Shown one piece after another: positions 8,895 through 53,287 of a stretch of DNA of 64,000 nucleotides. Position 1 is the first letter of the stretch; every line of letters begins with the position of its first letter. The stretch is from a virus (Duplodnaviria > Caudoviricetes): the IMG/VR virus record IMGVR_UViG_3300036784_000120, positions 32,001-96,000 of that record; one strand, given 5' to 3'. A model generated the notes under the pieces. That model was not told the DNA's origin. It saw only the letters and a list, made by a program, of their open reading frames with translations, and searched no databases. Both the position numbers and the translations under genes were made by a program.

Positions 8895-9121
8895 CAGTTG
8901 CTTACGCATGCTTTGCTCAGGCACGTCTCGTTGCCGCGCTGCGCGATCGGGATGACGCCGGACAGGTTCCCGCTGCCGCCGTAGGCGGCGGCGAGCGCCG
9001 AGCCGGGCACGATGTCGACGACGGTGCCGTGCCGGGCGAACGTGGTCACCGGGACGCCGCTGGCGTGGCCGTCCCACGTGACCGTGATGTCGGTGAGGAT
9101 CCGCTGCGGGTACTGGCTCAT
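8894..9121 (-). CDS. Small head-module protein ending in VSN
   Basis: 75 aa, paralog family. Confidence 0.65.
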   Translation of the reverse strand: MSQYPQRILTDITVTWDGHASGVPVTTFARHGTVVDIVPGSALAAAYGGSGNLSGVIPIAQRGNETCLSKACVSN

Positions 9122-9762
9122 AAGTTCGATACACCCACTCCCCAGCCGGGCATGCCGGCCTCAGCGTGCGGCGCGTACGGGAGCGTGTTCAGCGCCGAGT
9201 AGCCGCCCGCCCCGGTCGGGGCGACCGTGTTCGCGGCCGAGTACACGGGGGCGTCGGAGTGGGCCACGGTCAGGTCGATCGGGTCGAGCCACGACCAGCA
9301 CACGGTGCCGGTGTAGGTGACCGCGATGACCGACCCGGCGGGCAGCGGAATGCCCGCCGTGTAGGCGACGTTCGGCTGCATGCCGGGTGCCTGGACGATG
9401 TTGGTGGTGACCCCGTTGATGCTGATCGCGGAGACGGCGCCGCCGCCGGTGAACACGACGGACAGGTTCCGGCCGGTCGTGTTCGTGGTTGAGCTGGTGG
9501 AGGCGGGCAGGACCGGGGTGCATTCGGACCAGAACCAGACGGGGACCGCGACGGTGTACTGCAGCGCGCAGGTCCCGCCGGGCGGCACCGACATCATGAA
9601 CGCGGTCGCCGTGGTGGCCACCGACGCGGCGTTGACCCAGTAGTTGGCCATCGTGCTGCCATTCGCCCCGACCGTGACTAGGGCGGTGTTGCCGGTGGTG
9701 TTGACCGCAGTGTTGGTGAGTCCGGCGGGGCTGGTTGCGGGCACTGCAGGCTGGGTGATCAC
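9118..9762 (-). CDS. Putative decoration protein with two beta-sandwich repeats and a VSN tail
   Basis: Two NTTG...vN...P...Y...WxW repeats. Confidence 0.6.
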   Translation of the reverse strand: MITQPAVPATSPAGLTNTAVNTTGNTALVTVGANGSTMANYWVNAASVATTATAFMMSVPPGGTCALQYTVAVPVWFWSECTPVLPASTSSTTNTTGRNLSVVFTGGGAVSAISINGVTTNIVQAPGMQPNVAYTAGIPLPAGSVIAVTYTGTVCWSWLDPIDLTVAHSDAPVYSAANTVAPTGAGGYSALNTLPYAPHAEAGMPGWGVGVSNL

Positions 9763-30073: not shown

Positions 30074-33000
30074 GCCGCCTTCCCCTCCTCGGCCTGGAGC
30101 TGCTGAAGTTTCTGGGCAGCGGCGGCACGGAGATCAGCAGGCGTAGACGCATGGCCCTGATCCCAGTCGTCAGCGATATTCGCGGCTGCGGCAACCGTCA
30201 TCGCGTACGCCTGCTGCTGGTTGGCAGGGAGCATGTCACCGATCACCTGCCTGGCCATGACGTTCGGCTTGTCCAGCGTCCCGACCGCGTTCACCTGGTC
30301 CGCGATGTCCCTGATCGCAGCCATGGTGGCCGGGTCATTCTCCGGCTTGCCGGTTTTCATCTGCGCGGTCATCGACGCCCACTCGAACGCCTGCGCCGTC
30401 TGCTGCGGGTAGTGGCCCCACGAGTCCCCGGTCCTGATCGCGTCCGGTGACGACTTGTTGGCGGCCAGGTCAGACATGGTGGCACCAGGCGGGGCGTGCG
30501 GCGCGTCCGTGCCCGGTCCCCTGGCTATCGGCCTGTCCCCGATGCCCAGCTTGCCGAAATACTCACCGGCATGCTGAATAGCGCCCAGCTCAGTGAACCC
30601 CTCCTCTATATCGGCATTGCCCATGGACATGTTGTACGCTTCCTTGTCCCCGTTGGTTTCGCGGCTCTGCCCTTCGGGCACTACGGCGTGGATCAGCTCG
30701 TGCAGGTTCACCGCGTATGCGCCGGGCACCTTGACCGGCTGGTCAGGGTTATTCTCCGCGTCGGCTATCCCGGCGGCCACGTCGTTGCGCATGTCCATGT
30801 GGCCGTTCCAGTCCATGATCGCCAGGTCATTGCCCATGCTCGGGGACCACTTGCTGTACGTCGTGGGCGGCTTGCCGTCCCAGTCCAGGTGCGTGTCCGG
30901 GCCGAACATGTGCGGCACTATGGGAGCCGACCTGGCAATCAGCCTCCCGGCAGTTGCCTCGTCGCTCTTGCTTATGTGCTCAGTCCGGGAAATCTGGTTT
31001 TCTAGCTTGGTTATCTCATCCCCTTCGCCGCTCTTGACCCACTCCCCGCGGTGCCCGCGCAGTTCCGCCCGCCAGGCGTCACGCCAGCTCAGTTCCACTC
31101 CGGAAGACGGCACTTCACGAATGATGCGGACCGGGGATTTCGTTTGATGCTGGTCAGAACCGGCGGCGATTGGCCAGTGCTTCCCCGTGGGCTCAACCTC
31201 ATACACGTGCGGGTCACCCAGGCCGCCCCGGTCCCGTTCTGCGTAGTGCAGGGCATGCCGGACAGATCCCGCGATGTAAACAGACTTCGGGTCACTGTGC
31301 TCGGGACCGAAATTAGCCCGGTGCCCCACGGCCGGGTCAATAACGTCGCCCGGCTTGTGCACGTCACTGGTGCCATGGAACCATCGGCCGCCCGGCCCGC
31401 GATCCTCAGTCTCCCAGTCCAGTTCGATGACCTGCCCGGAGATCGAGTTGCTCGCGGAGATGATCCCGGCCGGCGGCTCGGTGTCCTCGTCTGCCCCGGT
31501 GTCTTCGGGTTCGTCGTGGGGCTGCTGCACTGCGACGGCCTGGGAGTGCCAGTGGCCGGGCCCGCGGAAGTGGTGGCCGCTGCCCACCGGGGTGCTCATC
31601 GCAGCTGCGGCGTGCTCGGGGACGTGCGGTGGCCAGAACCCGTCGCCGGACGCGAAATGGTAGGCGCCGCCGATCGCATGGGTGTACGCGCCGATCGTCT
31701 CCACCTGCCGCAGGCTGTCGAGCACCGTCACCGGGTCGATGTCGATCCGGTTCAGGTCATCGTCGTGGAACACCCCCAGGTACGAGCCGCCCTTGGCGAG
31801 CTGCTTGCCGTACTTGGACAGCGCGATGTTCATCGCCTCGTCGAACTGCTCGCGGCTGGCATGCTCGTCGATCGAGGTGGTGTCCAGGCCGGTCGGCTTG
31901 ATGCTCATCGCGTACTTGTCGGCGCCCTGCGGCAGGTCCTGCCCGGACCGCGGGTCGATGGTCGCGCCGCCCCACGACTTCTGCACCTCAGCGTAGGTGC
32001 GTGCCTTGATAGCCTCCCAGTTTTTGCGCATCCCCTCGGTGGTCCACGGCTGATGCTGAATGTCGTGGAGCCGGTCGCGGCCTTCCGCCGCCATCTGATG
32101 GAACTCGTCTTCGCTGACCGGCCTCGAGTTACCCCGCGCGCCTTCACCGCGGATCGGCTCAGTGACCTTCTCGAGCAGGCCCGCGCCGCCGCGGGTCCAC
32201 CGGCCGTCACGGTCGCGGGGCTCATCCCGCCACCCTTCCCAGCCGCGCAAGTCGATCAGGCGGGCCTGCCCGCTGACTGTCATGTCCTGCTCAGGTGCCA
32301 CCTCACGGACAACGCGCACCGGATGCGTGGTGCGGAAATCCTCCCCAGGCCGCCCGTCTGGATCCGCTTCCACTGGCCCGGTGGGTTCTACCTCATAGAC
32401 ATGCGCAGCCGCGTTCTCGTCCCGGGCCGCGCGCAGCCGGCCGATGCGATTGTGGGCGACGGTCGCGGCACGGTCGGCGTAGCGGGTAGCTACCTTGACG
32501 CTACGAGACACATGGTTGTACTGCCCCTGCAGACCGTTCACGTTCTCAAGACGGGGATCACGGGATGTGGCTGGGTGCCCTGTCTCAACTAGATCCCCGG
32601 GCTTCAGTACCGCGCTGGTGCCGTGGAAAAACTGGCCGTGCTCGTCCCGCGGTTCTGTCCGCCAGCCTTCCCAGTCGGATGCCGCCAGCTGCGCGGTCCC
32701 GCCGTACCGGGCATGCTGCTTCCCGCCGCCTTCCTCAGCGTCGGCCGTGACCTTATCCAGCCCGGCCAGCCATTTCGCCTCGGCCGGGTAGTTGTCGGTG
32801 AAGTGGACGGCGAGTTTCCCCGCATGCTCCACCGCGCCGGCGAGGTGCTTCTCGCAGTGGTCGGCGTTGAACTCCCATTCGGCGCCGTCCGGATCGGTGT
32901 CGGCTGTCATCGCTTCGGCGTGCCGGGATCCGTGGGTGAGCTCGTGGAGCGTTGTCTCGAGGAGATGCGCGGTGGTGGCGCTCTTGGCGGCGCTGCTGAC

Positions 33001-42628: not shown

Positions 42629-42951
42629 TGTGCGGCCCCCGGTGTCCCATGCACCGCTGCCGTCCACGCCGTGATCACGGCCGTCACGAACCGGGGATCC
42701 TGGCTCATCAGCCCGTCCAGGTCGGCAGGCACCGGATGACCGTCGTCGTCCTCCACGTTCCACGACTCCAGGGCGTAGCCGAGCGTCGCGGTCATATGGC
42801 GGAACGCCGCCAGGTCACCGGAGGCGACCGCAGCAGCAGTGTCGAGCATCACCGACATGGGCACCGGCCGGACCGTGATCTCCAGCCCTTCATACTCGGT
42901 GCCGGTGAAGTCCAGCTTGAACGGGGCGCGTTTCGGCCGGAAACCTGTCAC
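42625..42951 (-). CDS. Tail-chaperone-like protein
   Basis: YEGLEITVR...LESWNVEDDDGHPVPADLDGLMSQD. Confidence 0.5.
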   Translation of the reverse strand: MTGFRPKRAPFKLDFTGTEYEGLEITVRPVPMSVMLDTAAAVASGDLAAFRHMTATLGYALESWNVEDDDGHPVPADLDGLMSQDPRFVTAVITAWTAAVHGTPGAAQ

Positions 42952-44557
42952 TGTGCCGCTCCCGGTAGTCCGCCTGCTGCGGGCGGGTTCTGCGGTGGCC
43001 GCGGCGGGCCCGCGGCGGCGGGACGCATCTGCGGTGCCGACGGCGGCCGTGGCCCCTGCTGCCCGCCGCCGGCCCTGGCGGCGGCCTGCTGCGTGATCGC
43101 CGTGCCCGCCTGCGCGAGTCCCTGCAGCTGGCCGAGCCCCGCCGCGGCCTCCGGCGGCATGCCAGGCGGCGGATTGCCAGCTAGCTGTTCGGCACGTTGC
43201 GAAGCGGTAGACACCAGCGCGTCATGCACCTGGTCCACGTCCAGCTGCAGAATCGACGCCATCCGTTCGGTGATCAGGTCAAACACCTGCAGCGGCACGT
43301 GCAGCACCGGCGCCGCCGACATCTGCCCGAACATCGTCAGCAACTGCTGCGCCTGCTCATCCTGAAGCGGACCGAACTTCGCCTGCGGATACGATGCGCC
43401 GGTACCGAAGTTGAGCATCACCAGCGGCCGGATCACGTCGTAGGAGATGGATTCGGCGATTTCCTTCGCCACACCCTGACGCGACTTCAGGTAGAAGTCG
43501 GACTGGTCCTGCGACAGGCTGTAGGCGCCCTTCCCGCCGGTTGACGCGGACGCGAGGCCGAGGAACCCGGCCAGCACACTGCTGATCGCCCACGACGACA
43601 GGAACGACAGCGCCTGGGAGAAGAACAGGCCCGCATCCGCGGACGACGGGATCGCCTCGAACGCCTTCTGCCCGTCGATCGGGTGCACCAGCCCGACGAC
43701 ACCGGAGCCGCGGAGCTGGGAAATGTCGTCGGCGCGGGCGGTGGCTTCCGGCTGGTCGTTGCCGTAGACGACAAGCCGCTGCAACGCCATGTTCTCCAGG
43801 TAGTAGTACCAGAGATACAGCAGCTTCATCTGGGTCGAATGGCACCAGTACGCCACCTCAACCTCGGACACGCCCGTCAGCGGCTCCCGGTGCTTCCCGT
43901 GGGTGTAAATGTAGGAGCGGATCTTCGGGATATCCACATACCCCGGCACCTTCTGCCGCCTGGACAGCATCAGGTTCCCGCCGAACAGCCACACCTGCTG
44001 CCGGAACCCGTTCGCCTCCCCCGACCTGTCGTTATACCGGGCCTGGCACGTGGCAGGCGGGCGGAACGCGATCTTGTCGTAAACGATCTTCCCGTCCGAC
44101 TCGCGGACCTTGAACGTCTTCTCGAAAAACGCCCGCCGGTACAGCTGACCCGACGTGATCTGGCCGAGCAGCTCCGTCATCGGCGTCCGCATGCCGCCCT
44201 CAGTGTCCGGCGTCATCAGCACGCTGCGGATGAAGTCGCATTCGCCTTTGTCGCCCTTGCCGGGCTCAATCGAGAAGTCGGCTTCGCGGATCGGGAGGGT
44301 CAGCACCAGCTCGAGGGCCTGCGCGGTGCCGTTGCGGGAGAACATGGTCTTCAGGTCACGAGACGACCATTCGCCATATTCTTAAATCGAAGACATCACC
44401 CTCGCCGTAGTAGGCGAACAGCCGCTGACCGTAGTCAAACGAGGTCTAAAGTCCCGATCTCAGGACCCATCAGGGTCCGCTTGCCGCCCGGGCCGCGGGA
44501 GCCCTTGGGGGGGAGATCGGGGAAGGCGATCACGTTAGCGTCTTTACCGGATGCCAT
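42948..44557 (-). CDS. Portal protein (about 531 aa), interrupted by two 7-nt TTA-containing inserts
   Basis: Mu gp29/DUF935-like core; N-terminus MASGKDAN...GPEIGT|SFDYGQ...DVFD|YGEWSSRDLKTMF is restored by removing 2x7 nt. Confidence 0.82.
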
Positions 44558-44609
44558 CTTCTTGCATCACCCCCTCTCCGCTGCCAGGGGCGCACAAGGG
44601 CGCCGGTGA

Positions 44610-44631
44610 TGCACGTGCATATGCACGTGCA
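44610..44631. promoter_or_regulatory. TGCACGTGCA-TA-TGCACGTGCA operator, copy 2
   Basis: Perfect 24-bp palindrome 44609-44632 upstream of the portal. Confidence 0.78.
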
Positions 44632-44716
44632 TGGGGCCACGATACCGCCTGCCCGCATGCCGGGCATAGCCACGTACCGCTGTACGCCATGCCGACATGT
44701 GTGGTATGATGTACTT

Positions 44717-45091
44717 GTGGATGAGAAGACGAACGACGGCACGATCACCATGAGGCTGACGCCGTTCCAGGCCACCGAGATCGAGCACGGCCTGGACATC
44801 GACGCCAGCGACGGCAACCCCGACTGGGGTGAGCTGAAGTACGCCGGGCGCCGCACCGGCCCGGCCGTGCTCACCATCCGGGCCGGGCAGCAGAACCTGG
44901 ACGCTGCCCTGTACCGGGTCACGTCCAGCCGGGACATCCCCGCCGACAACGCCAGCGACCCGATGGCCAGCCCCGGCGAGCGGATGGGCTACCTGTCCGC
45001 CGCCCGCTCCCTGGACTCGCTGGTGCAGCGGCTCATCGCCGTTGCCGGCGGCCCGGAAGCATTCAGCAAGAACGTCAGGCGATGGATATGA
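44717..45091 (+). CDS. Hypothetical protein, paralog of 20676..21062
   Basis: Leaderless GTG 6 nt after TATGAT. Confidence 0.72.
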   Translation: MDEKTNDGTITMRLTPFQATEIEHGLDIDASDGNPDWGELKYAGRRTGPAVLTIRAGQQNLDAALYRVTSSRDIPADNASDPMASPGERMGYLSAARSLDSLVQRLIAVAGGPEAFSKNVRRWI

Positions 45092-45342
45092 CCGCCTCCC
45101 CGATCTCGCCGGAGACGATGCGCGAGCACCGTGCCCGCTGGTTCGTCTACGCCGGCAGGGAGAAGATCCGGCACACCGCCACCATGCGCGGCCAGTGGGG
45201 CTACGACGTTGAATGCTCATGCGGGTGGAAGACCCGGACCGGCGGCGGCGTCCGCAGCTACGTAGAGGACGAACTGTTCGCGCACCGTTTCAGCGCCCAG
45301 TGCGACGCTGAGCGGGCCGCGACCGCAGGGGAGACCCGATGA
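45088..45342 (+). CDS. Hypothetical protein (CSCGW)
   Basis: In operon. Confidence 0.55.
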   Translation: MTASPISPETMREHRARWFVYAGREKIRHTATMRGQWGYDVECSCGWKTRTGGGVRSYVEDELFAHRFSAQCDAERAATAGETR

Positions 45343-45632
45343 GCGCCGAGCGAATGCAGGCACCATACCTTCCGTCCGGCGGCACCCGCGTGCCGCTGCC
45401 ATGCGGCCACCACAATGCGCGGCTCCGCCCCGGCGAGCGCACAGCGGAGCGGCGCTGCCGGACCTGCCGCAACTACTACCTCATCGAGTGCTCGGATACT
45501 GAGACCGCGCTGGTCTCGGACATCACGTGCCCGGCATGCGGAGCGAGCATGAACAGCGAGGGTGACATGTGGTGGTGCCCGGGTTGCGGCGACGAATGGG
45601 ACGACGAGACGGTACGGGGAGTGGTGCGCTGA
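45339..45632 (+). CDS. Zn-ribbon protein
   Basis: CRTC, CPAC, CPGC. Confidence 0.6.
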   Translation: MSAERMQAPYLPSGGTRVPLPCGHHNARLRPGERTAERRCRTCRNYYLIECSDTETALVSDITCPACGASMNSEGDMWWCPGCGDEWDDETVRGVVR

Positions 45633-45967
45633 TGGCGACACACGAGTCCGTGGAGATGATCTGCGGGCACAGTGCCCAGCTCACACCTGACAATGCTAGG
45701 CAGGCGCGCAGGAACGGCTCGCTGTTCTGCCCCACATGCGGGCACAAGCAGCCCCTAACGCCTGACTGGCCGGACCGTTCCTGGGTCACGGCCGCCGAGC
45801 TCGCCGCGATCGCGCGGCGCAACGAACGCACCATCCACCGCGAAATCGAACGCAGGAACCTGCACGCCGAACGCGCCGGCGGCGCCCCCTCCCCGTGGAT
45901 CATCGAACGCGCCGAGGCAGAACGGTGGCTGCGCGAGTACAAACCGGAAAGGACGGCAGAACGATGA
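45632..45967 (+). CDS. Zn finger plus excisionase/MerR-like HTH protein
   Basis: WVTAAELAAIARRNERTIHREI...WII. Confidence 0.65.
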   Translation: MATHESVEMICGHSAQLTPDNARQARRNGSLFCPTCGHKQPLTPDWPDRSWVTAAELAAIARRNERTIHREIERRNLHAERAGGAPSPWIIERAEAERWLREYKPERTAER

Positions 45968-46188
45968 CGCGACTGCAGCAGGAGATAGCCGACTACCTGC
46001 ATAGCCCGGTAACCGCCGCCGAAGTCCAGACCGCCGCATACGTGAGGTTCGCGGCATGGATGGCCGCGCACGATACCGGGCCGCGCAGCGTCACGGTCGG
46101 GCAGATCGGCCGGGAATTCCAGAACCTCAGCTACGAGACTATCTGCCGGTGGATCAGGCACTACCGGGGAGGGGAGCAAGAGCAGTGA
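45964..46188 (+). CDS. Small HTH-like protein
   Basis: VGQIGREF..LSYETICRWI. Confidence 0.5.
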   Translation: MTRLQQEIADYLHSPVTAAEVQTAAYVRFAAWMAAHDTGPRSVTVGQIGREFQNLSYETICRWIRHYRGGEQEQ

Positions 46189-46451
46189 GTGACTACATTC
46201 CGCCTGAGCCGTCGTCTCGCGACAAGGTGCTCCACCGGGTGCAAGGCGGCCGGTGGGTGGCCAGCGGGTACGACATGGGACTGGTGCTCAACGACCAGCC
46301 CGAGCACGAAGACGGGGTTCTCGGCGTGGCGGAGTACGAAGGCGGCCCGGTCCTTGAGTTCATCAACGGGCACGCCTACGACACCGGCGTGACCGTGACG
46401 ATCATGATCATCACCACCGAGGCATCCATCCGGACGGAGGACAAGCGATGA
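46185..46451 (+). CDS. Hypothetical protein
   Basis: GTGA overlap. Confidence 0.5.
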   Translation: MSDYIPPEPSSRDKVLHRVQGGRWVASGYDMGLVLNDQPEHEDGVLGVAEYEGGPVLEFINGHAYDTGVTVTIMIITTEASIRTEDKR

Positions 46452-46744
46452 GGTTCCGTGACACGTACGGCGGGTCATGGCCGGGCCCGTACCCCGGCAC
46501 CCGCCGGTGGGCGAGTAGGTCCGTCTCCTACGGGCCGGGCACCGCACTCGCCTACCTGACCGTCAAGACCCTGCTGTGGGTGTTCCTGCTCGGCCCGCTG
46601 TGGATCGTCGCTGAATGCTGGACGGTCCTCATCTCCGCGGCCGCGGTCATGGCCGGCTGGTGGATCACCAAGACGATCCCGCAGTACGACGTGCGGTTCA
46701 TCCCCGGCCGGTTCCGCCTGTGGTACTTCACCGGGAGGCCATGA
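46448..46744 (+). CDS. Membrane protein
   Basis: Hydrophobic core. Confidence 0.55.
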   Translation: MRFRDTYGGSWPGPYPGTRRWASRSVSYGPGTALAYLTVKTLLWVFLLGPLWIVAECWTVLISAAAVMAGWWITKTIPQYDVRFIPGRFRLWYFTGRP

Positions 46745-47034
46745 TGAGCAAACGGCAGGTATTCCGGTACACCGTCCCCATCGACGAACAGCCCCACGTC
46801 ATCCAACTCACCGGTGACCCGCTGCACGTCGCGAACGGCACCCTGATTGATGAGGTTGAGTTCTGGGCTGAGCACGACATGGACGCGCCTGAGTACCCGG
46901 CGGTGTTCCAGGTAGTCGGCACCGGGGATCCGGTGCCCGACGGCGCGGTGCACGCGGGGACGACACCGAGGGATGCAGTCGGCGGCGTGTGGCACCTTTA
47001 CCGGCTTCCGCTAGACGCCGGGAGGCAGTCATGA
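46741..47034 (+). CDS. Conserved small phage protein
   Basis: VFRY...FWAE...FQVVGTG..VP...HAGT...VWHLY. Confidence 0.6.
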   Translation: MMSKRQVFRYTVPIDEQPHVIQLTGDPLHVANGTLIDEVEFWAEHDMDAPEYPAVFQVVGTGDPVPDGAVHAGTTPRDAVGGVWHLYRLPLDAGRQS

Positions 47035-47264
47035 CGGCCACCCGGTGCCGTGGCCGCGCCCGGCACTGGCGGATCGCGTTCGGCACCGTCGGGCTCCGCA
47101 CCCCCGTGTGCGTGTACTGCGGCGACCCGAACCCGAAACCGCTCACCGACCAGGAGTGGGCCGAGCTGATCTACTACAGCACGACCGTCCGCAACGCCGG
47201 CGGCCAGTACGTACGGGCGGCGATTGAGGCGCGCGAGGCGGAGAAAGCCGGGAGGCCGCAGTGA
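47031..47264 (+). CDS. Hypothetical protein
   Basis: CVYC. Confidence 0.5.
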   Translation: MTATRCRGRARHWRIAFGTVGLRTPVCVYCGDPNPKPLTDQEWAELIYYSTTVRNAGGQYVRAAIEAREAEKAGRPQ

Positions 47265-47566
47265 ACGGCCCCGCTAGGGACGGAGAAACCGTGATGCAGG
47301 ACGACGACCCGAGGAAGATTGAGATCAAGCCCGGTGACCGGGTGGCGATCCACTACCCGTCCAGCGGTCCGGGCAGGGCCGCGTCGGAGTCGGCTGAGAC
47401 GATCGCGGCCGCCATGGACGTGGTGGAGAAACTGGTGCCCGGCTGCACCTGGCGGCGGTACCCGGCGGAGTTGGCCGAGCCGACCCGCGCCCAGGCGGTC
47501 GTGCTGAACTGCCACAAGCCTGACGGCAGTTACACCGGCTACCAGGTCCACTGGATTCGGCGGTGA
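47261..47566 (+). CDS. Hypothetical protein
   Basis: Overlaps neighbours. Confidence 0.5.
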   Translation: MNGPARDGETVMQDDDPRKIEIKPGDRVAIHYPSSGPGRAASESAETIAAAMDVVEKLVPGCTWRRYPAELAEPTRAQAVVLNCHKPDGSYTGYQVHWIRR

Positions 47567-47790
47567 CCGAGCATGAGGGGCCGGGTCACGGGGACGTGAC
47601 GCTGAGCCTCACCGAGGAAACCAAGGACGGCGGGCGGCTGTTCCAGTCGTGGAAGGTCTGTGAATGCACCGCCGTCGCGCTGCGAGCCCGGCTAGGGCCC
47701 GCGCAGCATGAGAGCATCGCCACCGCTGAGGCTGTCCGCGCGACCGCGGAAGCGGTCCTGAACCAGCCGGGTGCCGTACACCGCCTGTGA
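47563..47790 (+). CDS. Hypothetical protein
   Basis: GTGA overlap. Confidence 0.5.
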   Translation: MTEHEGPGHGDVTLSLTEETKDGGRLFQSWKVCECTAVALRARLGPAQHESIATAEAVRATAEAVLNQPGAVHRL

Positions 47791-47810
47791 TGATGGGGGC
47801 CGGGGGCGGG

Positions 47811-47885
47811 GCGGGAGCCGGCCCCTGTACCGTTCAATTGGGGACTCAAGCGGTACAAGGTTAGACGGGGTTAGCCGGCTCCCGC
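47811..47885. terminator. Long interrupted hairpin (terminator or structured RNA)
   Basis: gcgggagccggc...tgtaccg...cggtaca...gccggctcccgc. Confidence 0.55.
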
Positions 47886-47977
47886 CGGCTAAAGGCAACC
47901 ACCCAGCAGCATCACCGCCCTAAGTTACGAGGCGTGTCCGCTTCCAGCATGACACACGCATGGCATACTGCAAGCCC

Positions 47978-48229
47978 ATGAATGAGGAGAGCGAGGCGCT
48001 GGCCCTCGCCCGGGTCCGCGCCCAACTCCGTACCGGGGAAGCACGGGCGATCCGGAAACAGGCCGGCCTGTCCCAGGCAGACGTAGGCCGTGCGGTGGGC
48101 AGTGACGGGCCGCAAGTGTCCCGCTGGGAGACGCAGAAGTCGGTGCCGCGGCGGGAGTCGGCGCTGAAACTCGCCCGGCTGCTCGACGATCTCGACGCGA
48201 TGAACCGCAGCGGCGACGGTGGTGCCTAA
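47978..48229 (+). CDS. XRE/Cro-like HTH protein
   Basis: IRKQAGLSQADVGRAVGSDGPQVSRWE. Confidence 0.8.
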   Translation: MNEESEALALARVRAQLRTGEARAIRKQAGLSQADVGRAVGSDGPQVSRWETQKSVPRRESALKLARLLDDLDAMNRSGDGGA

Positions 48230-48466
48230 CTCCGGCCACCGCCCGGCCTGCTTCAGCAGGTCCAGGTCGTGGGGTGACAGGAACCCGAGATCGTTCATCA
48301 GCCGCAGCTCGTGATCGCTGAACATGGCGGTCATCGCGCCGACCCAACATGAGGTCGGCCTGCCGTCGGCACCTGTCACGCTCGCGCTCAAATCGGCCGG
48401 CCACGTCGGGGACCTGCCGGGACCTGAACGGGTCAAGGACCGGCCCTACGTTGACGGTGCCGTCGC

Positions 48467-49297
48467 TCACCGGGCACCTGCCCATGCGCGCTGGTAGGCG
48501 CTGACCAGCCACCGGTTAGCCACGTCGTAGTTCGGATGCTCAGGCAGCGGCGACGCCAGCGGCGACGCCAGCAGGTCCCTGATCCGTGCCTCGAGCTGGT
48601 CGGCGAGCATCAGCGCCCGGTCCATCGGGACCAGCCCCGTGCGGATGTCGCGGACGATCTCCCGCTGCCACTCCGGCATGGGAAGCGTGATCTGGCCGGT
48701 TTCCAGCAGCTCCACGCCCTGGAAGCCGAGCCGGACCATGTGGCCGCCGAACTTGGTGTCCCAGCCGTAGGCCGCGATCAGTTCGGGGCGGGTGACATCG
48801 CGGCCTTTCCCGTCGTGGGACAGCATCGACCGGCGCTGCGCGTGCAGGTACCCGGCGAACCGGTGCCCCGCCTGCCTTGAGACGATCAGCGGGGTGAGGT
48901 CCCGCAGGTCCGCGCCGAGCGGCGTGATCGTGACGATCTCCGCGGGCGGGACGAACAGGGGGATCAGGATCGACGGGTTCCCGGCCAGCGCGAGACGCAG
49001 GTACTTGCGCAGCGAGTAGATCGTGATGTCCAGGTCGCCGGGGCCGGACCGGTTGGCGAGCCCGCCGGGGCGTTCCCACGCGGTGTGATGCTCGTACTGG
49101 TCGAACTCGCGGAGCCCGATCACGTACTCGGCCGGCTCAGTGCAGATGCCCATCTCGTCGCGGTCGTCGTGGCCGGTGATCGCGGTGCCGTGGACACCGG
49201 AGCCGACCTGGCAGCGCAGGATGGTGGCCGATTCGGCGAGCTCGCGGAACTCCGCGCTGCCGTGCTTGCCGGGACTGCGGTATTCCGTGTCGCTCAT
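48467..49297 (-). CDS. Pol-beta superfamily nucleotidyltransferase (YcgL/RlaP-like)
   Basis: VGSGVHG...DDRDEMG, GNPS, GWDTK...HMVRL. Confidence 0.85.
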   Translation of the reverse strand: MSDTEYRSPGKHGSAEFRELAESATILRCQVGSGVHGTAITGHDDRDEMGICTEPAEYVIGLREFDQYEHHTAWERPGGLANRSGPGDLDITIYSLRKYLRLALAGNPSILIPLFVPPAEIVTITPLGADLRDLTPLIVSRQAGHRFAGYLHAQRRSMLSHDGKGRDVTRPELIAAYGWDTKFGGHMVRLGFQGVELLETGQITLPMPEWQREIVRDIRTGLVPMDRALMLADQLEARIRDLLASPLASPLPEHPNYDVANRWLVSAYQRAWAGAR

Positions 49298-49347
49298 GCA
49301 CCCCAGCATACCCGTTCGGCTACATAGGGCATAGTAGACTACTGGTC

Positions 49348-49815
49348 ATGTCGAAGACTCGCATGACGCTCCAGGCGAAGACGGTGCTCCGCATGCTCGC
49401 AGCCGACCCCGGCCGTGAGGTGTACGGCCTGGAAATCATACGCGCGACCGGGCTGATCAGCGGTTCCGTCTACCCCCTCCTGGGCCGCCTGGAATCGAGC
49501 GGCTGGCTGACATCACGGGCCGAGCAGATCACCCCGGCCACCGAGGGGCGGCCGCCGCGCCGCTACTACCGGATCACGCCGGCAGGCATCGCGCAGGCAC
49601 GCGCACTACCACCCGCGCAGGCATCCCCCGCAGAAAAAGCCCTGGCGCGCGGGATGCTCCAGATCGCTGACACTGCGGACATGCCAGACTCGTTCTGGCA
49701 GGCCGACAGGCGCATCAGGCTAGCCCGTGAGGTCCTCGGCGTGCCCGACGACGGCCGGTACACCCACAGCGCACTATGGGAAGCGGAAACCAGAGACGAG
49801 GCGGCCAGAGCATGA
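49348..49815 (+). CDS. PadR-family regulator
   Basis: YGLEI...SGSVYPLLGRLESSGWL...RRYYRITPAG. Confidence 0.88.
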   Translation: MSKTRMTLQAKTVLRMLAADPGREVYGLEIIRATGLISGSVYPLLGRLESSGWLTSRAEQITPATEGRPPRRYYRITPAGIAQARALPPAQASPAEKALARGMLQIADTADMPDSFWQADRRIRLAREVLGVPDDGRYTHSALWEAETRDEAARA

Positions 49816-49967
49816 CCGGCGAACATGAAATGGTCACGGTTCGCCGCGATGACCTGGCGGTGTTCCTGGCCGCAGTGGATACCGACTACGTAAGCACCGA
49901 TGACCTGCCGGACCTTCAGGACCGGATCGAGCGGCTCTATGCGGCCATCGGCGAGGAGACCGGATGA
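49812..49967 (+). CDS. Small hypothetical protein
   Basis: ATGA overlaps. Confidence 0.45.
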   Translation: MTGEHEMVTVRRDDLAVFLAAVDTDYVSTDDLPDLQDRIERLYAAIGEETG

Positions 49968-50513
49968 CTGACGACAATGTGACGCCGTTCCGGCGGCCCG
50001 GCCAGGCTCCGCCGCCGGCCGGTGAGCTGAGCCGTGCCCGCGCGCTCGCCGCCGAGCAGAACGCCGGCCCCCGGGAACGCTACGGGGCTGCGATCAGCCG
50101 GCAGCGCGCCGAACGGCTCATCGCGACCGGGAAAGTTGTCCCGGCCCGCATCACCATGGCGCTCGACATCCGTGACCTCGAGGGCCCCGAAGTTGACATC
50201 GCATGCGGCGCCGCCGAGCCGGACGTGGACATGTGGGAGCTGGGCCTGGCCGTCCCGTCGCCGGAACAGGTGACGCTGCTCGCCGAGCTGACCGGATTCC
50301 AGCCCGCGTTCTTCTACAATCCGATCGAGCCCGGTCCGCTCGCCGCGTCGGCGATATTCATGTGCAGCGGCCCGCACCTGCACGGTCACCGCGCCGGACG
50401 TGGTGGATGAGAACGGGGTGCTGCTGTACGAAGGGAAGCCCCGCAATCTGCCCGCCGCCGTGCTCCGCAAGATGCGCAAACAGCCGCCCGCCGGGCAGGG
50501 AGCACTGTTCTGA
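49964..50513 (+). CDS. HTH protein with an apparent 1-nt frameshift near 50371
   Basis: PARITMALD...VDMWELG HTH; coding-like continuation in another frame to ...GQGALF. Confidence 0.55.
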
Positions 50514-50680
50514 TGACGAGACCCGTCCCGGAAGAGACACCGGAGGACTGGCTGCTTTCCGCTCGGCAGCATTCCCTACCTGGATAGCAGCGGCGAGATC
50601 CTGATCAGGACGCCGTACGGTGACACGATCGGCAAGAACGGACTAGCGACAGCAGGGGGACGGCCCTGGGGGGTTCATCC

Positions 50681-50765
50681 GGCTAGGGGAAGAGTCGAAC
50701 TTCTCCCCCCGAAGGGGGCCTGGCATCCCGTATCCACCGGGCCACTCCTGTCCTGGTGGTTAGCC
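50681..50765 (-). ncRNA. tRNA-like structured RNA (degenerate)
   Basis: GGCTA/TAGCC terminal stem, T-arm GAAG-TTCGACT-CTTC, cUUCGg hairpin. Confidence 0.4.
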
Positions 50766-50816
50766 AAGTCACAAGTCCCGGACACCGCAGCCGAATGCTC
50801 GCCAGCATAACCCGGG

Positions 50817-51026
50817 TCATGCCCGCCGGGCCACCGCGTGCAGCGCATACACGAACGCGAGGTGATACCCGTCTTCGGCGAGCAGCTTGTCCAGCCGGTC
50901 GGTGTAGCCGTCGTCGCGGCCGACGGCGAGGCGGAACATTGCGGTCTGGGCCAGCACCCGCGCCGCGCGCTGCGGCGTCATGATCTGCTCCATCCGCGCC
51001 ACCGTCATGTACTCCTCGGGTTTCAC
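50817..51026 (-). CDS. Hypothetical protein
   Basis: 69 aa, AAAGG RBS. Confidence 0.5.
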   Translation of the reverse strand: MKPEEYMTVARMEQIMTPQRAARVLAQTAMFRLAVGRDDGYTDRLDKLLAEDGYHLAFVYALHAVARRA

Positions 51027-51165
51027 CCGGCCACCTTTCAGTTCACCGCCATGATTTGACGTTGCCCCGGCCGGAAGTTCACGCCCCAGGGGTGCTGACC
51101 GGGCATCCTACCGCCACGATCGGACATTCCCCCCGTATCACCGGGTACAGGTTAAACTAGATCCC

Positions 51166-51591
51166 ATGCCGTATGCCGATCCAGAGAAGCACAGAAAATG
51201 GCAGCGTGAGTGGATGGCTCGGCGGCGTGCCGAGTGGATAGCTGCGCACGGCCCTTGCGTGGACTGCCGCACTTGGGACGATCTACAGGTAGACCATGTT
51301 GACGCCTCGACAAAGGTCACTCACCGGGTCTGGTCCTGGGCCAAAGAGAGGCGCGAGGAGGAGCTGGCTAAGTGCACCGTCCGGTGTGCCCCGTGTCACG
51401 AAGCGAAGACGACAGCCAGCCGCGAGGATCCCCGCGGCGAGCAGCACTGGGCCGCGAAGCTGAAAGACGACCAGATACCGGACATCCGCGCCTCACAGCT
51501 TTCGATTTCACACCTGGCTAGGGTTTACGGCGTCAGCCGGAAGGCTATCCGCAATGTGCGCCAGGGAAAGACCTGGCTTCACGTCGCTTAG
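51166..51591 (+). CDS. HNH endonuclease with C-terminal HTH
   Basis: CVDC...QVDHVD...CAPCHEAKT; leaderless after TAAACT. Confidence 0.85.
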   Translation: MPYADPEKHRKWQREWMARRRAEWIAAHGPCVDCRTWDDLQVDHVDASTKVTHRVWSWAKERREEELAKCTVRCAPCHEAKTTASREDPRGEQHWAAKLKDDQIPDIRASQLSISHLARVYGVSRKAIRNVRQGKTWLHVA

Positions 51592-51594
51592 TCC

Positions 51595-53287
51595 CTATCG
51601 CCACGACTTGACGTTGCCCCGGCCGCGGTCCGGTTGCGCCTGGTCATCGTCGTCTGGCGAAAAGCCGTCCAGGTCCCACGGGGCCGCATCCATGTTCTGC
51701 TGCGCCTTCTCCATGATTTCCCGCATCCTGCGATGCCCGCGTGCTTCCTCCCCGATGCCCATGTCCGCGAGGTTCTGCGCGCCTGCCCACTTCCGTACGG
51801 CACCCGGCCCGTACTCGCCGAGGTGCGGCACGAACGCCTGCACCACGGCGTCGCCGTCGTCGGTGGACCGGCCGAGCCGCTCCCGGATGTCGTCTTTGCC
51901 TTCCACCTGGATCCGGCCGCTTGACGTGACATCCCACTGCGGTGTCGACAGGTCACCGAGCAGCATCTCGTCGTCCGGCAGGCAGATGTCCGGGCGGGCC
52001 GACGGGTCCAGGGCCTGCCGCAGCGTCCACCACGCTTCACTCCTGCGGTTGGCGAACCCGAACTCGCGGGTGGAGTCTTTCGCCTTCGACCCGCGGGACG
52101 CGTTGAACGCCAGCACCCTGGCGTGCTGCTCGCGGAGCCGGTCGACGACACCCGCGCCGATACCGATCACGTCAACCACGGCGGTGCGGGAATCGTCAGC
52201 GGACAGGATCGCGTTCACCCGCCCCGTGGTTTTCATCGTGTCTTCCCGCACGAACCGGCGCAGCTCCGTGATCACGGGCCCGTTACGGATCGCGAGGACA
52301 GTGCGGTCCTCACCGGTCCTGGCCACGTCCACCCCGACGGTGCGGGGCCTGCCCAGGTCCGGCTTGCCCGCAGCCTCCCACTCATGCCAGCGGGCCACCG
52401 CCGCCTCAGCCCACGCCAGCGGGATAACCGAATCCTCGTCGCCGGCGTGGAACTCGCCGAGCACCCGGTTCACGTAGATCGCTGACGTTTCACCCCACTG
52501 GCGGAGCCGCTGCGCCGCCCAGTCCCTGGTGACCCGCCCCGCCGTGATCGCGTCGTCGAGGGTGACATGGACCGGATACCAGTCCTCGTACCCCTGCCGG
52601 CGTGACTGAATGTCGTAGAACCGGCCCTGCGGTGCCCCCGGCGTCGACAGTGCCAGCGCGAACGCTTCCCTCGTGCCGTCCCCGGCGCCGGAGAACGCGC
52701 CTTCGCACGCGTCGAACGTGCCCGCCGGGATCGCCTTGCTCTCGTCGTAGACGAACAGCAGCGAATCGGCGTGCGCGCCTTCGATCAGCGCCGCGTTAGC
52801 TGACGCGCCGGCGAACGCATGCCCGTAACTGAGCCGCAAGTTCAGGTTCTGCAGCTCCGCCCGGGTGAACGGGTGGCCGTCACGGACCCTCCCCCATTTG
52901 ATCCGGCCGGCCCACTTGTGGATTTCCGGCCACAGGTACTGGGTCAGCTGATGCCATGACCCGGCGGTCGTCGCGACCTTCCAGTCCACGCCGGCGGCGT
53001 CCCGGGTCAACGCAAACCACAGCACCGTCACCGCCGCGATGGTGCTTTTGCCCAGTCCTTAATCCATGGGGGCCGCGGACCGCTTCGCGTTTCCGCTGCG
53101 GCAGGCCCCCAATGATTTCCTCCTGGTATCCGGTCAGCCCCTCGCCGCGCCAGTCGATGCAGTCCGCGGCGAAGCCGAGCGGGTCATCGTAGTAGCGGGC
53201 GACGCCCTGCTTGATTTTCGCTGCGCGCCGCTGCAGTTCCAGCAGGTAGCGCAGCCGGTCAGCCGGCGCCTGTATCTGCGGGGTCAT
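51595..53287 (-). CDS. terL: Terminase large subunit (about 561 aa), interrupted by a 7-nt TTA insert in Walker A
   Basis: GPHG|LGKST restored; VYDE Walker B, LSTP, VGVDVARTGED, STDDGDA. Confidence 0.9.

Follow-up and report, generated by a model that had tools for sequence, protein, structure and literature searches.

Two short coding gaps, probably skipped by translational bypassing, in the portal gene of an uncultured 128-kb phage

How can a phage make its portal protein from a gene whose reading frame is interrupted twice close to the start codon? This question is raised by the tailed soil phage (Duplodnaviria; Caudoviricetes) of IMG/VR record IMGVR_UViG_3300036784_000120, a sequence of 127,789 bp with 69.6% G+C that is rated 100% complete. 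The stretch analysed here, referred to as the window, is 64,000 nucleotides (nt) long and corresponds to positions 32,001 to 96,000 of the record. On its minus strand, the portal gene runs through three frames, separated by two 7-nt blocks, to a stop at 42948. Comparison with related loci makes it probable that the two blocks are short coding gaps of the phiHau3 type, which the ribosome would skip by translational bypassing. We infer the hop itself, and its efficiency, from comparative sequence. The elements of the gene are as follows (aa, amino acids; SD, Shine-Dalgarno).

42948..44557, minus strand: whole portal gene, Mu-type (PF06074 / phrog_113); 36 + 19 + 476 codons, 531 aa if two 7-nt hops take place
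44566..44574, minus strand: SD sequence GGGGGTGAT, with an 8-nt spacer to ATG 44557
44450..44557, minus strand: coding segment 1, 36 codons, the last being the putative take-off codon ACT (44452-44450)
44443..44449, minus strand: gap 1, TTAGACC, made of the in-frame TTA (44449-44447), G 44446 and the putative landing codon ACC (44445-44443)
44435..44437, minus strand: TGA closing a 40-aa product when the first TTA is read as Leu
44386..44442, minus strand: coding segment 2, 19 codons (SFDYGQRLFAYYGEGDVFD), the last being the putative take-off codon GAT (44388-44386)
44379..44385, minus strand: gap 2, TTAAGAA, made of the in-frame TTA (44385-44383), A 44382 and the putative landing codon GAA (44381-44379)
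44356..44358, minus strand: TGA terminating translation when the second TTA is read as Leu
42948..44378, minus strand: coding segment 3, portal core, 476 codons and the stop, resuming at TAT 44378

A preliminary description, made from the letters of the window, had located both sites on the minus strand, and its coordinates and letters are exact. It had also stated that normal decoding meets a TGA soon after each site, as it does at 44437-44435 and 44358-44356. In gap 1, landing codon ACC and take-off codon ACT are synonyms; in gap 2, landing codon GAA is near-cognate to GAT, with a mismatch at the third position. The gene matches the PF06074 profile with 86.8 bits (curated cut-off, 23.9). The portal open reading frame (ORF) also matches the phrog_113 portal and, weakly, solved portals. 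A blastn search of the portal region against cultured phages gave no match.

Many relatives encode the portal in a single unbroken ORF of about 540 aa, and the consensus of these uninterrupted proteins reads ...FPDL...MGxEIGTQFDWGQRLFAYYGEGDVFDYGEW.... A frameshift-aware protein-to-DNA aligner was written for the homologue comparison. Aligned with an uninterrupted homologue, the window portal shows exactly two 7-nt jumps and zero other frame breaks. With both blocks removed, the 531-aa product shows no indel against about 30 uninterrupted homologues; it reads ...EIGTSFDYGQRLFAYYGEGDVFDYGEW..., collinear with the consensus. Two skips of 7 nt do, then, restore the seamless N-terminus that the preliminary description had announced, and the homologues read EIGT(S/Q)FD and DVFDYGEW without inserts, as it had expected. 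Portals of cultured Streptomyces phages (Intolerant, Crosby and others), which are 35% identical, can be aligned with the read-through translation from its residue 33-38 onwards, and this alignment falls inside their annotated portal genes. The idea that homologous portals begin at Met 44345 is not borne out, since both the uninterrupted relatives and the portals of Streptomyces phages also span this N-terminal part. By sequence comparison, the N-terminal 70 residues are part of the portal. Between the middle 19-codon segment and its counterpart in a related locus (L015; related loci are designated by L and a number), 11 differences are synonymous and 1 is non-synonymous.

A scan of IMG/VR gave 74 related portal loci. 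The catalogue of gaps is built on 72 loci covering the N-terminus, taken from IMG/VR and from contigs of metagenome-assembled genomes (MAGs), five of them from independent MAG assemblies. The arrangement described for the window, an in-frame TTA after a take-off codon and a near-cognate landing codon 7 nt on, is confirmed, and gaps of this kind are present in 45 of these 72 loci. In total, 47 distinct gaps occupy seven sites, namely after IGT, AYY, DVF, VFD, DYG and (A/S)RD, plus (A/S)FF in the body of the protein. As the related contigs are not independent in phylogeny, these counts are higher than the number of separate events, and the seven sites and the variety of gap strings are a safer guide. 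Without exception, the gaps open with a codon in the frame of the upstream segment, TTA in 43 of 47 and TGA in 4 of 47. Gap lengths of 4, 5, 6, 7, 8, 9, 10, 11, 13, 14, 15 and 19 nt were found, with a split modulo 3 of 5/24/18. Stop codons are present in five in-frame gaps, among them those of 9 nt in L033 and of 15 nt in L012 and L046/L055-59. The 7-nt form of gap 1 also occurs in L015, L042/43 and L046, and variants of 5, 8, 9 and 10 nt are found at the same site; at the site of gap 2, L009 (8 nt) and L030 (9 nt) carry variants that both land on GAA. The TGA-led gaps of the AYY site (L054, L079, L030, L037, L044) measure 4, 5, 7 or 8 nt, which indicates that the slow codon at the A site can also be a stop codon in this system. 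One of these loci, L079, comes from a Kineosporiaceae-binned MAG.

In the portal tree, 42 loci including that of the window form a clade in which each gene has 1-4 gaps in mosaic combinations. Sister clades lack gaps, and three outliers have one or two. Gap content turns over fast among close relatives, in a mosaic pattern. Within the region holding six of the sites, differences between loci number 2678, 2029 and 8280 at codon positions 1, 2 and 3, respectively. Judged by these substitutions, the gap-bearing portal region is under purifying selection and the genes are not decaying.

These data bear on the simplest alternative, according to which the gene is decaying or mis-assembled, either because the phage is defective or because the portal starts at Met 44345. 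Gene callers would indeed split the gene, and the ORF from Met 44345 (465 aa) contains the entire Pfam portal domain. Against this, purifying selection appears in all segments of the gene of a record rated complete, and inserts of this class are present in 45 contigs, MAG assemblies included; the kinds of gap seen in the catalogue are also present in the independent ones. Inspection of the minus-strand sequence upstream of Met 44345 revealed no SD motif, whereas ATG 44557 has a strong one, and the ribosome binding site GGGGGTGAT and the start ATGGCATCC are also present in relatives. Homologues, moreover, keep the N-terminal 70 residues. Decay or mis-assembly is therefore hardly credible as an explanation.

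What distinguishes the gaps is the relationship between their last triplet and the codon that precedes them. In 42 of the 47 gaps, the last triplet equals the take-off codon at two or more of the three positions. Shuffled controls gave a mean of 14 such matches and a maximum of 24 (2000 trials), and six shifted registers gave 0-8. When wobble equivalence is allowed, at least two positions pair in all 47 gaps and 18 landings are fully cognate, each of these being the first cognate triplet downstream. Bypassing is favoured because such rules depend on the reading frame: a slow codon or a stop codon stands at the A site, and the landing triplet is like the P-site codon. This is the pattern expected from re-pairing of the peptidyl-tRNA after a stall, and not from random damage or a step of RNA processing.

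From these features, the following course of events can be proposed. Translation would start at ATG 44557 and proceed until ACU (Thr36) occupies the P site and UUA the A site. UUA is nearly unused by the phage and would presumably be decoded slowly by a high-GC actinobacterial host. During the stall, peptidyl-tRNA-Thr would leave ACU, the mRNA would slide by 7 nt, the tRNA would re-pair on ACC and decoding would restart at UCG. A second hop, 19 codons further on, would lead from GAU to GAA, with decoding restarting at UAU. The outcome would be a 531-aa portal collinear with the unbroken homologues, and TLMGPEIGTSFDYGQR and LFAYYGEGDVFDYGEWSSR would be the junction peptides expected from the two hops. 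Ribosomes decoding either UUA as Leu would halt at the nearby UGA and release a useless peptide of 40 aa or about 65 aa.

Could a simpler recoding event give the same result? A +1 frameshift, or the reading of UUA-G and UUA-A as quadruplets, would yield a 535-aa portal with extra Leu-Thr and Leu-Glu. In favour of this, both window gaps are of the 3n+1 kind, and TTAG and TTAA read as one step lead into the open frame. The extra residues would, however, fall in the most conserved N-terminal motif, where the uninterrupted homologues have no indel, and gaps at the same sites in relatives are also of the 3n and 3n+2 kinds, some with in-frame stops. No single-base frameshift rescues the whole set, and the in-frame gaps with stop codons are beyond the reach of any shift by one nucleotide. 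The details of the sites also disagree with a +1 slip. In prfB, a slow A-site codon combined with an upstream SD-like sequence can shift the frame, and here an SD-like GAGGGTGAT inside segment 2 (44403-44395) precedes the second take-off codon by 6 nt. In prfB, though, the P-site codon must re-pair in +1 (CUU U). This is not open to ACU U or GAU U, as neither ACU to CUU nor GAU to AUU can re-pair, and the +1 frame is closed: across the TTA it reads TAG in gap 1 and TAA in gap 2, and TAG or TAA is found at all three window sites (the two of the portal and the terminase site described below). As for quadruplet reading, the phage encodes no tRNA whose anticodon loop is extended. No tRNA gene was detected in the window or in the whole 127,789-bp genome, which rules out a phage-borne suppressor or quadruplet tRNA. 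Frameshifting or quadruplet reading is thus very unlikely.

Removal of the two 7-nt blocks from the mRNA by splicing or editing, before translation, would also produce a continuous frame. To our knowledge, no bacterial mechanism excises segments of 4-19 nt. The rules followed by the gaps, with an in-frame TTA or TGA first and a last triplet like the preceding codon, matter only to a translating ribosome. In addition, the E. coli reporter that gave the junction peptide of phiHau3 was unprocessed (PMC10732093). Splicing or editing appears even less probable than a frameshift.

Some observations weigh against translational bypassing as described above. At the second landing, tRNA-Asp would meet GAA, a codon that is only near-cognate to it. 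More generally, 29 of the 47 gaps land on a triplet that pairs at only two of three positions, and earlier triplets of this quality exist. A rule by which landing occurs on the first matching triplet was considered and rejected: it holds for the 18 fully cognate cases and fails for those matching at two of three positions. Hairpins adjoin the take-off codons, with fold energies in the range of shuffled sequences; at three window sites and two phiHau3 sites, the stability of the local RNA folds does not differ significantly from that of shuffles (z = -0.2 to -1.9). Finally, two consecutive inefficient hops would give a low yield, which would be tolerable only because 12 portal copies per virion suffice.

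The use of TTA elsewhere is in keeping with its rarity in the phage. In a crude genome-wide gene call, 2 in-frame TTA codons were counted among 35,513 codons. Across the aligned portals, none of 31,618 codons is a sense TTA, as compared with 2,741 other Leu codons; five apparent sense TTAs are in fact gap starts. One of the two TTAs in called genes, at window positions 9121-9123 on the minus strand, immediately precedes the stop of a 214-codon gene (AAC TTA TGA), and this stop overlaps the ATG of the next gene. The other lies outside the window, on the minus strand of the genome (C1:114172-114174), in the context GGC TTA CGG GGC, which could be plain Leu-Arg-Gly or an in-frame hop of 9 nt from one GGC codon to the other. 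Concerning the host, the only hints are the MAG bins of relatives, which are Streptosporangiaceae (three), Kineosporiaceae and Mycobacterium sp.; the host is probably not Streptomyces.

How do these gaps compare with known systems? Bypassing of UUA was proposed for the phiHau3 terminase (Smith et al., 2013; PMC10732093). A full-length product was obtained in Streptomyces and, for one phiHau3 site, the junction peptide was identified by mass spectrometry in E. coli (Antonov et al., 2023; PMC10732093). Only 3 such genes, those of phiHau3 and of two prophages, were found among 100 terminases, and the authors still term UUA bypassing a candidate, largely overlooked (PMC10732093). Read here from the phiHau3 DNA, the gaps consist of GGC followed by a 10-nt gap ending in GGT and of TCT followed by a 10-nt gap ending in TCC; one of them is nearly the same string as a portal gap of L002. 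The likeness with the window is extensive. In both, TTA stands in frame right after the last sense codon and opens a short block (10 or 7 nt in phiHau3) that ends in a synonym of the take-off codon; both have a single essential packaging gene interrupted twice, a zero-frame stop close by and a genome that otherwise avoids TTA. The terminase of the window is gapped too, in its Walker A region. On the other hand, the double interruption affects here the portal and not the terminase, the second landing is only near-cognate, the host of the uncultured 128-kb phage is probably not Streptomyces, and the relatives of the phage are far more varied (seven sites, 4-19 nt, TGA-led gaps) than the three published cases. 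Two Streptomyces phages that are close relatives of phiHau3, BroPlease and GreenWeasel (ON526970.1, ON526974.1), have their terminase annotated as two features, 'terminase' and 'hypothetical protein', at the g6/g7 junction; these terminases probably carry the same UUA gaps. In the literature searched, neither portal gaps nor a gap catalogue spanning a family had been described.

Gene 60 of T4 is also a phage gene in which a single protein comes from two frames: the peptidyl-tRNA leaves the take-off codon in front of a slow A-site codon (UAG in T4; UUA here, according to the proposed course of events) and re-pairs downstream. The T4 gene is linked to the homing endonuclease mobA; its gap is 50 nt long and lies between identical GGA codons, and it has a take-off stem-loop and a 5' stem-loop as well as a nascent-peptide signal. 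In contrast, the gaps here measure 7 nt, the portal codon pairs are not identical, no significant structure is seen, and no adjacent HNH/HNH_3 endonuclease was found. The portal gaps are therefore akin to T4 gene 60 in their putative mechanism and not a member of that type. The byp elements of Magnusiomyces capitatus mitochondria are 27-55 nt long, with a take-off codon followed by unassigned or rare codons. They resemble the present gaps in that many short bypassed inserts occur per gene or genome, vary between relatives and have matched take-off and landing codons; they differ by their setting in yeast mitochondria and by their length. As with the TTA codons of Streptomyces genes such as adpA, which depend on bldA (tRNA-Leu-UAA), a rare UUA would make translation hinge on a scarce tRNA. 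However, adpA needs its TTA to be decoded, whereas decoding here would abort the protein, an inverted logic already proposed for phiHau3.

The portal is not the only packaging gene concerned, as the gene of the terminase large subunit (51595-53287; phrog_2) is also interrupted.

53056..53065, minus strand: terminase gap, GGA TTA A GGA

A 7-nt skip between the identical GGA codons rebuilds the Walker A motif of the terminase, GPHGLGKST, and the geometry is identical to that of the portal gaps. Five related terminases have a gap of 7 or 11 nt at the same place, with GGA or CGA as the landing codon, and in most of the others VRGPHGLGK(S/T) is unbroken. In a 5'-end-anchored scan of called genes, only the terminase and portal sites were convincing, and gaps between very short segments would escape such a scan. 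Genome-wide scans of codon log-odds and of third-position G+C content (GC3) by frame, made in search of further gaps, were too noisy, as antisense shadow frames also score well.

Other insertions were noticed in the same two genes of relatives. In some related terminases (L004:271-2457; also L091-L093, L096 and L130), a mini-intein of about 150 aa follows GLGK and ends with ...THN before an S. This point (GLGK | intein | S) lies three codons downstream of the position of the TTA gap in the window's terminase; in the few loci seen, gap and mini-intein do not co-occur. A Pfam search with the mini-intein gave no match. In some related portals (L063:1385-3298 and L065:1382-3211; also L067, L068 and L073), an insert of about 1 kb near core residue 170-175 matches Hint and LAGLIDADG_3, and is thus an intein with a homing endonuclease; the part of the portal downstream of it appears in a different frame. 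The two genes lie about 0.3-1 kb apart in relatives, compared with 7 kb here. The extra stretch (window 44600-51500) contains mostly small plus-strand ORFs without counterpart in the relatives' flanks and looks like an inserted island. It also encodes an RlaP nucleotidyltransferase (48467-49309, minus strand) and a PadR regulator (49348-49815, plus strand); these were the only matches among the island ORFs, which showed no nuclease domain. A search of this genome and four related records for HNH/HNH_3 domains, other nuclease families not being searched, gave no match in the vicinity of the portal or terminase, and one complete relative with a portal gap has no HNH/HNH_3 gene at all.

This leads to the question of the purpose of the gaps. 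Three purposes would fit the data alike: a sensor of tRNA-Leu(UAA), an attenuator keeping portal and terminase scarce, or a tolerated or protective selfish insert. A regulatory gate of the bldA type, in which the hop would sense charged tRNA-Leu(UAA) as proposed for phiHau3, is possible and rather doubtful; the 'double gate' of the preliminary description, which would tie packaging to host tRNA-Leu(UAA) level or developmental stage, corresponds to this hypothesis. That the hop is real and serves another end, the gaps being simple attenuators or tolerated or protective inserts disrupting targets of homing endonucleases or inteins, is likewise a tentative proposal that we would not call probable. 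The insert of T4 gene 60 disrupts the target site of MobA. In the present family, this other purpose would agree with the mosaic content and fast turnover of the gaps, with the terminase gap standing three codons upstream of the relatives' mini-intein point, with the LAGLIDADG intein in some related portals and with the location of gaps in low-copy proteins. The lack of HNH/HNH_3 domains near portal or terminase in the five records searched argues against insert protection, and the retention of at least one gap in 42 of the 42 portals of the window's clade argues against a neutral insert. As every gene of the clade keeps a gap while the sites change, selection for the presence of a gap, with turnover of its position, is suggested. 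Short UUA- or UGA-led gaps may even be an obligatory, fast-turning trait of the whole clade of soil actinophages of about 125-130 kb, a generalization to which we give slightly less than an even chance. If it holds, selection would keep 'at least one hop' in the packaging genes, and the 47 natural variants would be a ready mutational series defining the rules of short-range bypassing, namely a slow A-site codon, landing by pairing at codon positions 2 and 3, and tolerance of 4-19 nt.

Relative to the published cases, the portal would be a second essential gene, with two consecutive hops, for which relatives give dozens of natural variants. These variants make frameshifting untenable and reveal which features are constrained. 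For annotation, a portal or terminase gene that appears split in phage metagenomes of high GC should not be labelled a pseudogene. For the study of recoding, the sites offer testable rules and compact 7-nt reporter cassettes. For phage biology, they raise the question of whether packaging depends on the tRNA state of the host.

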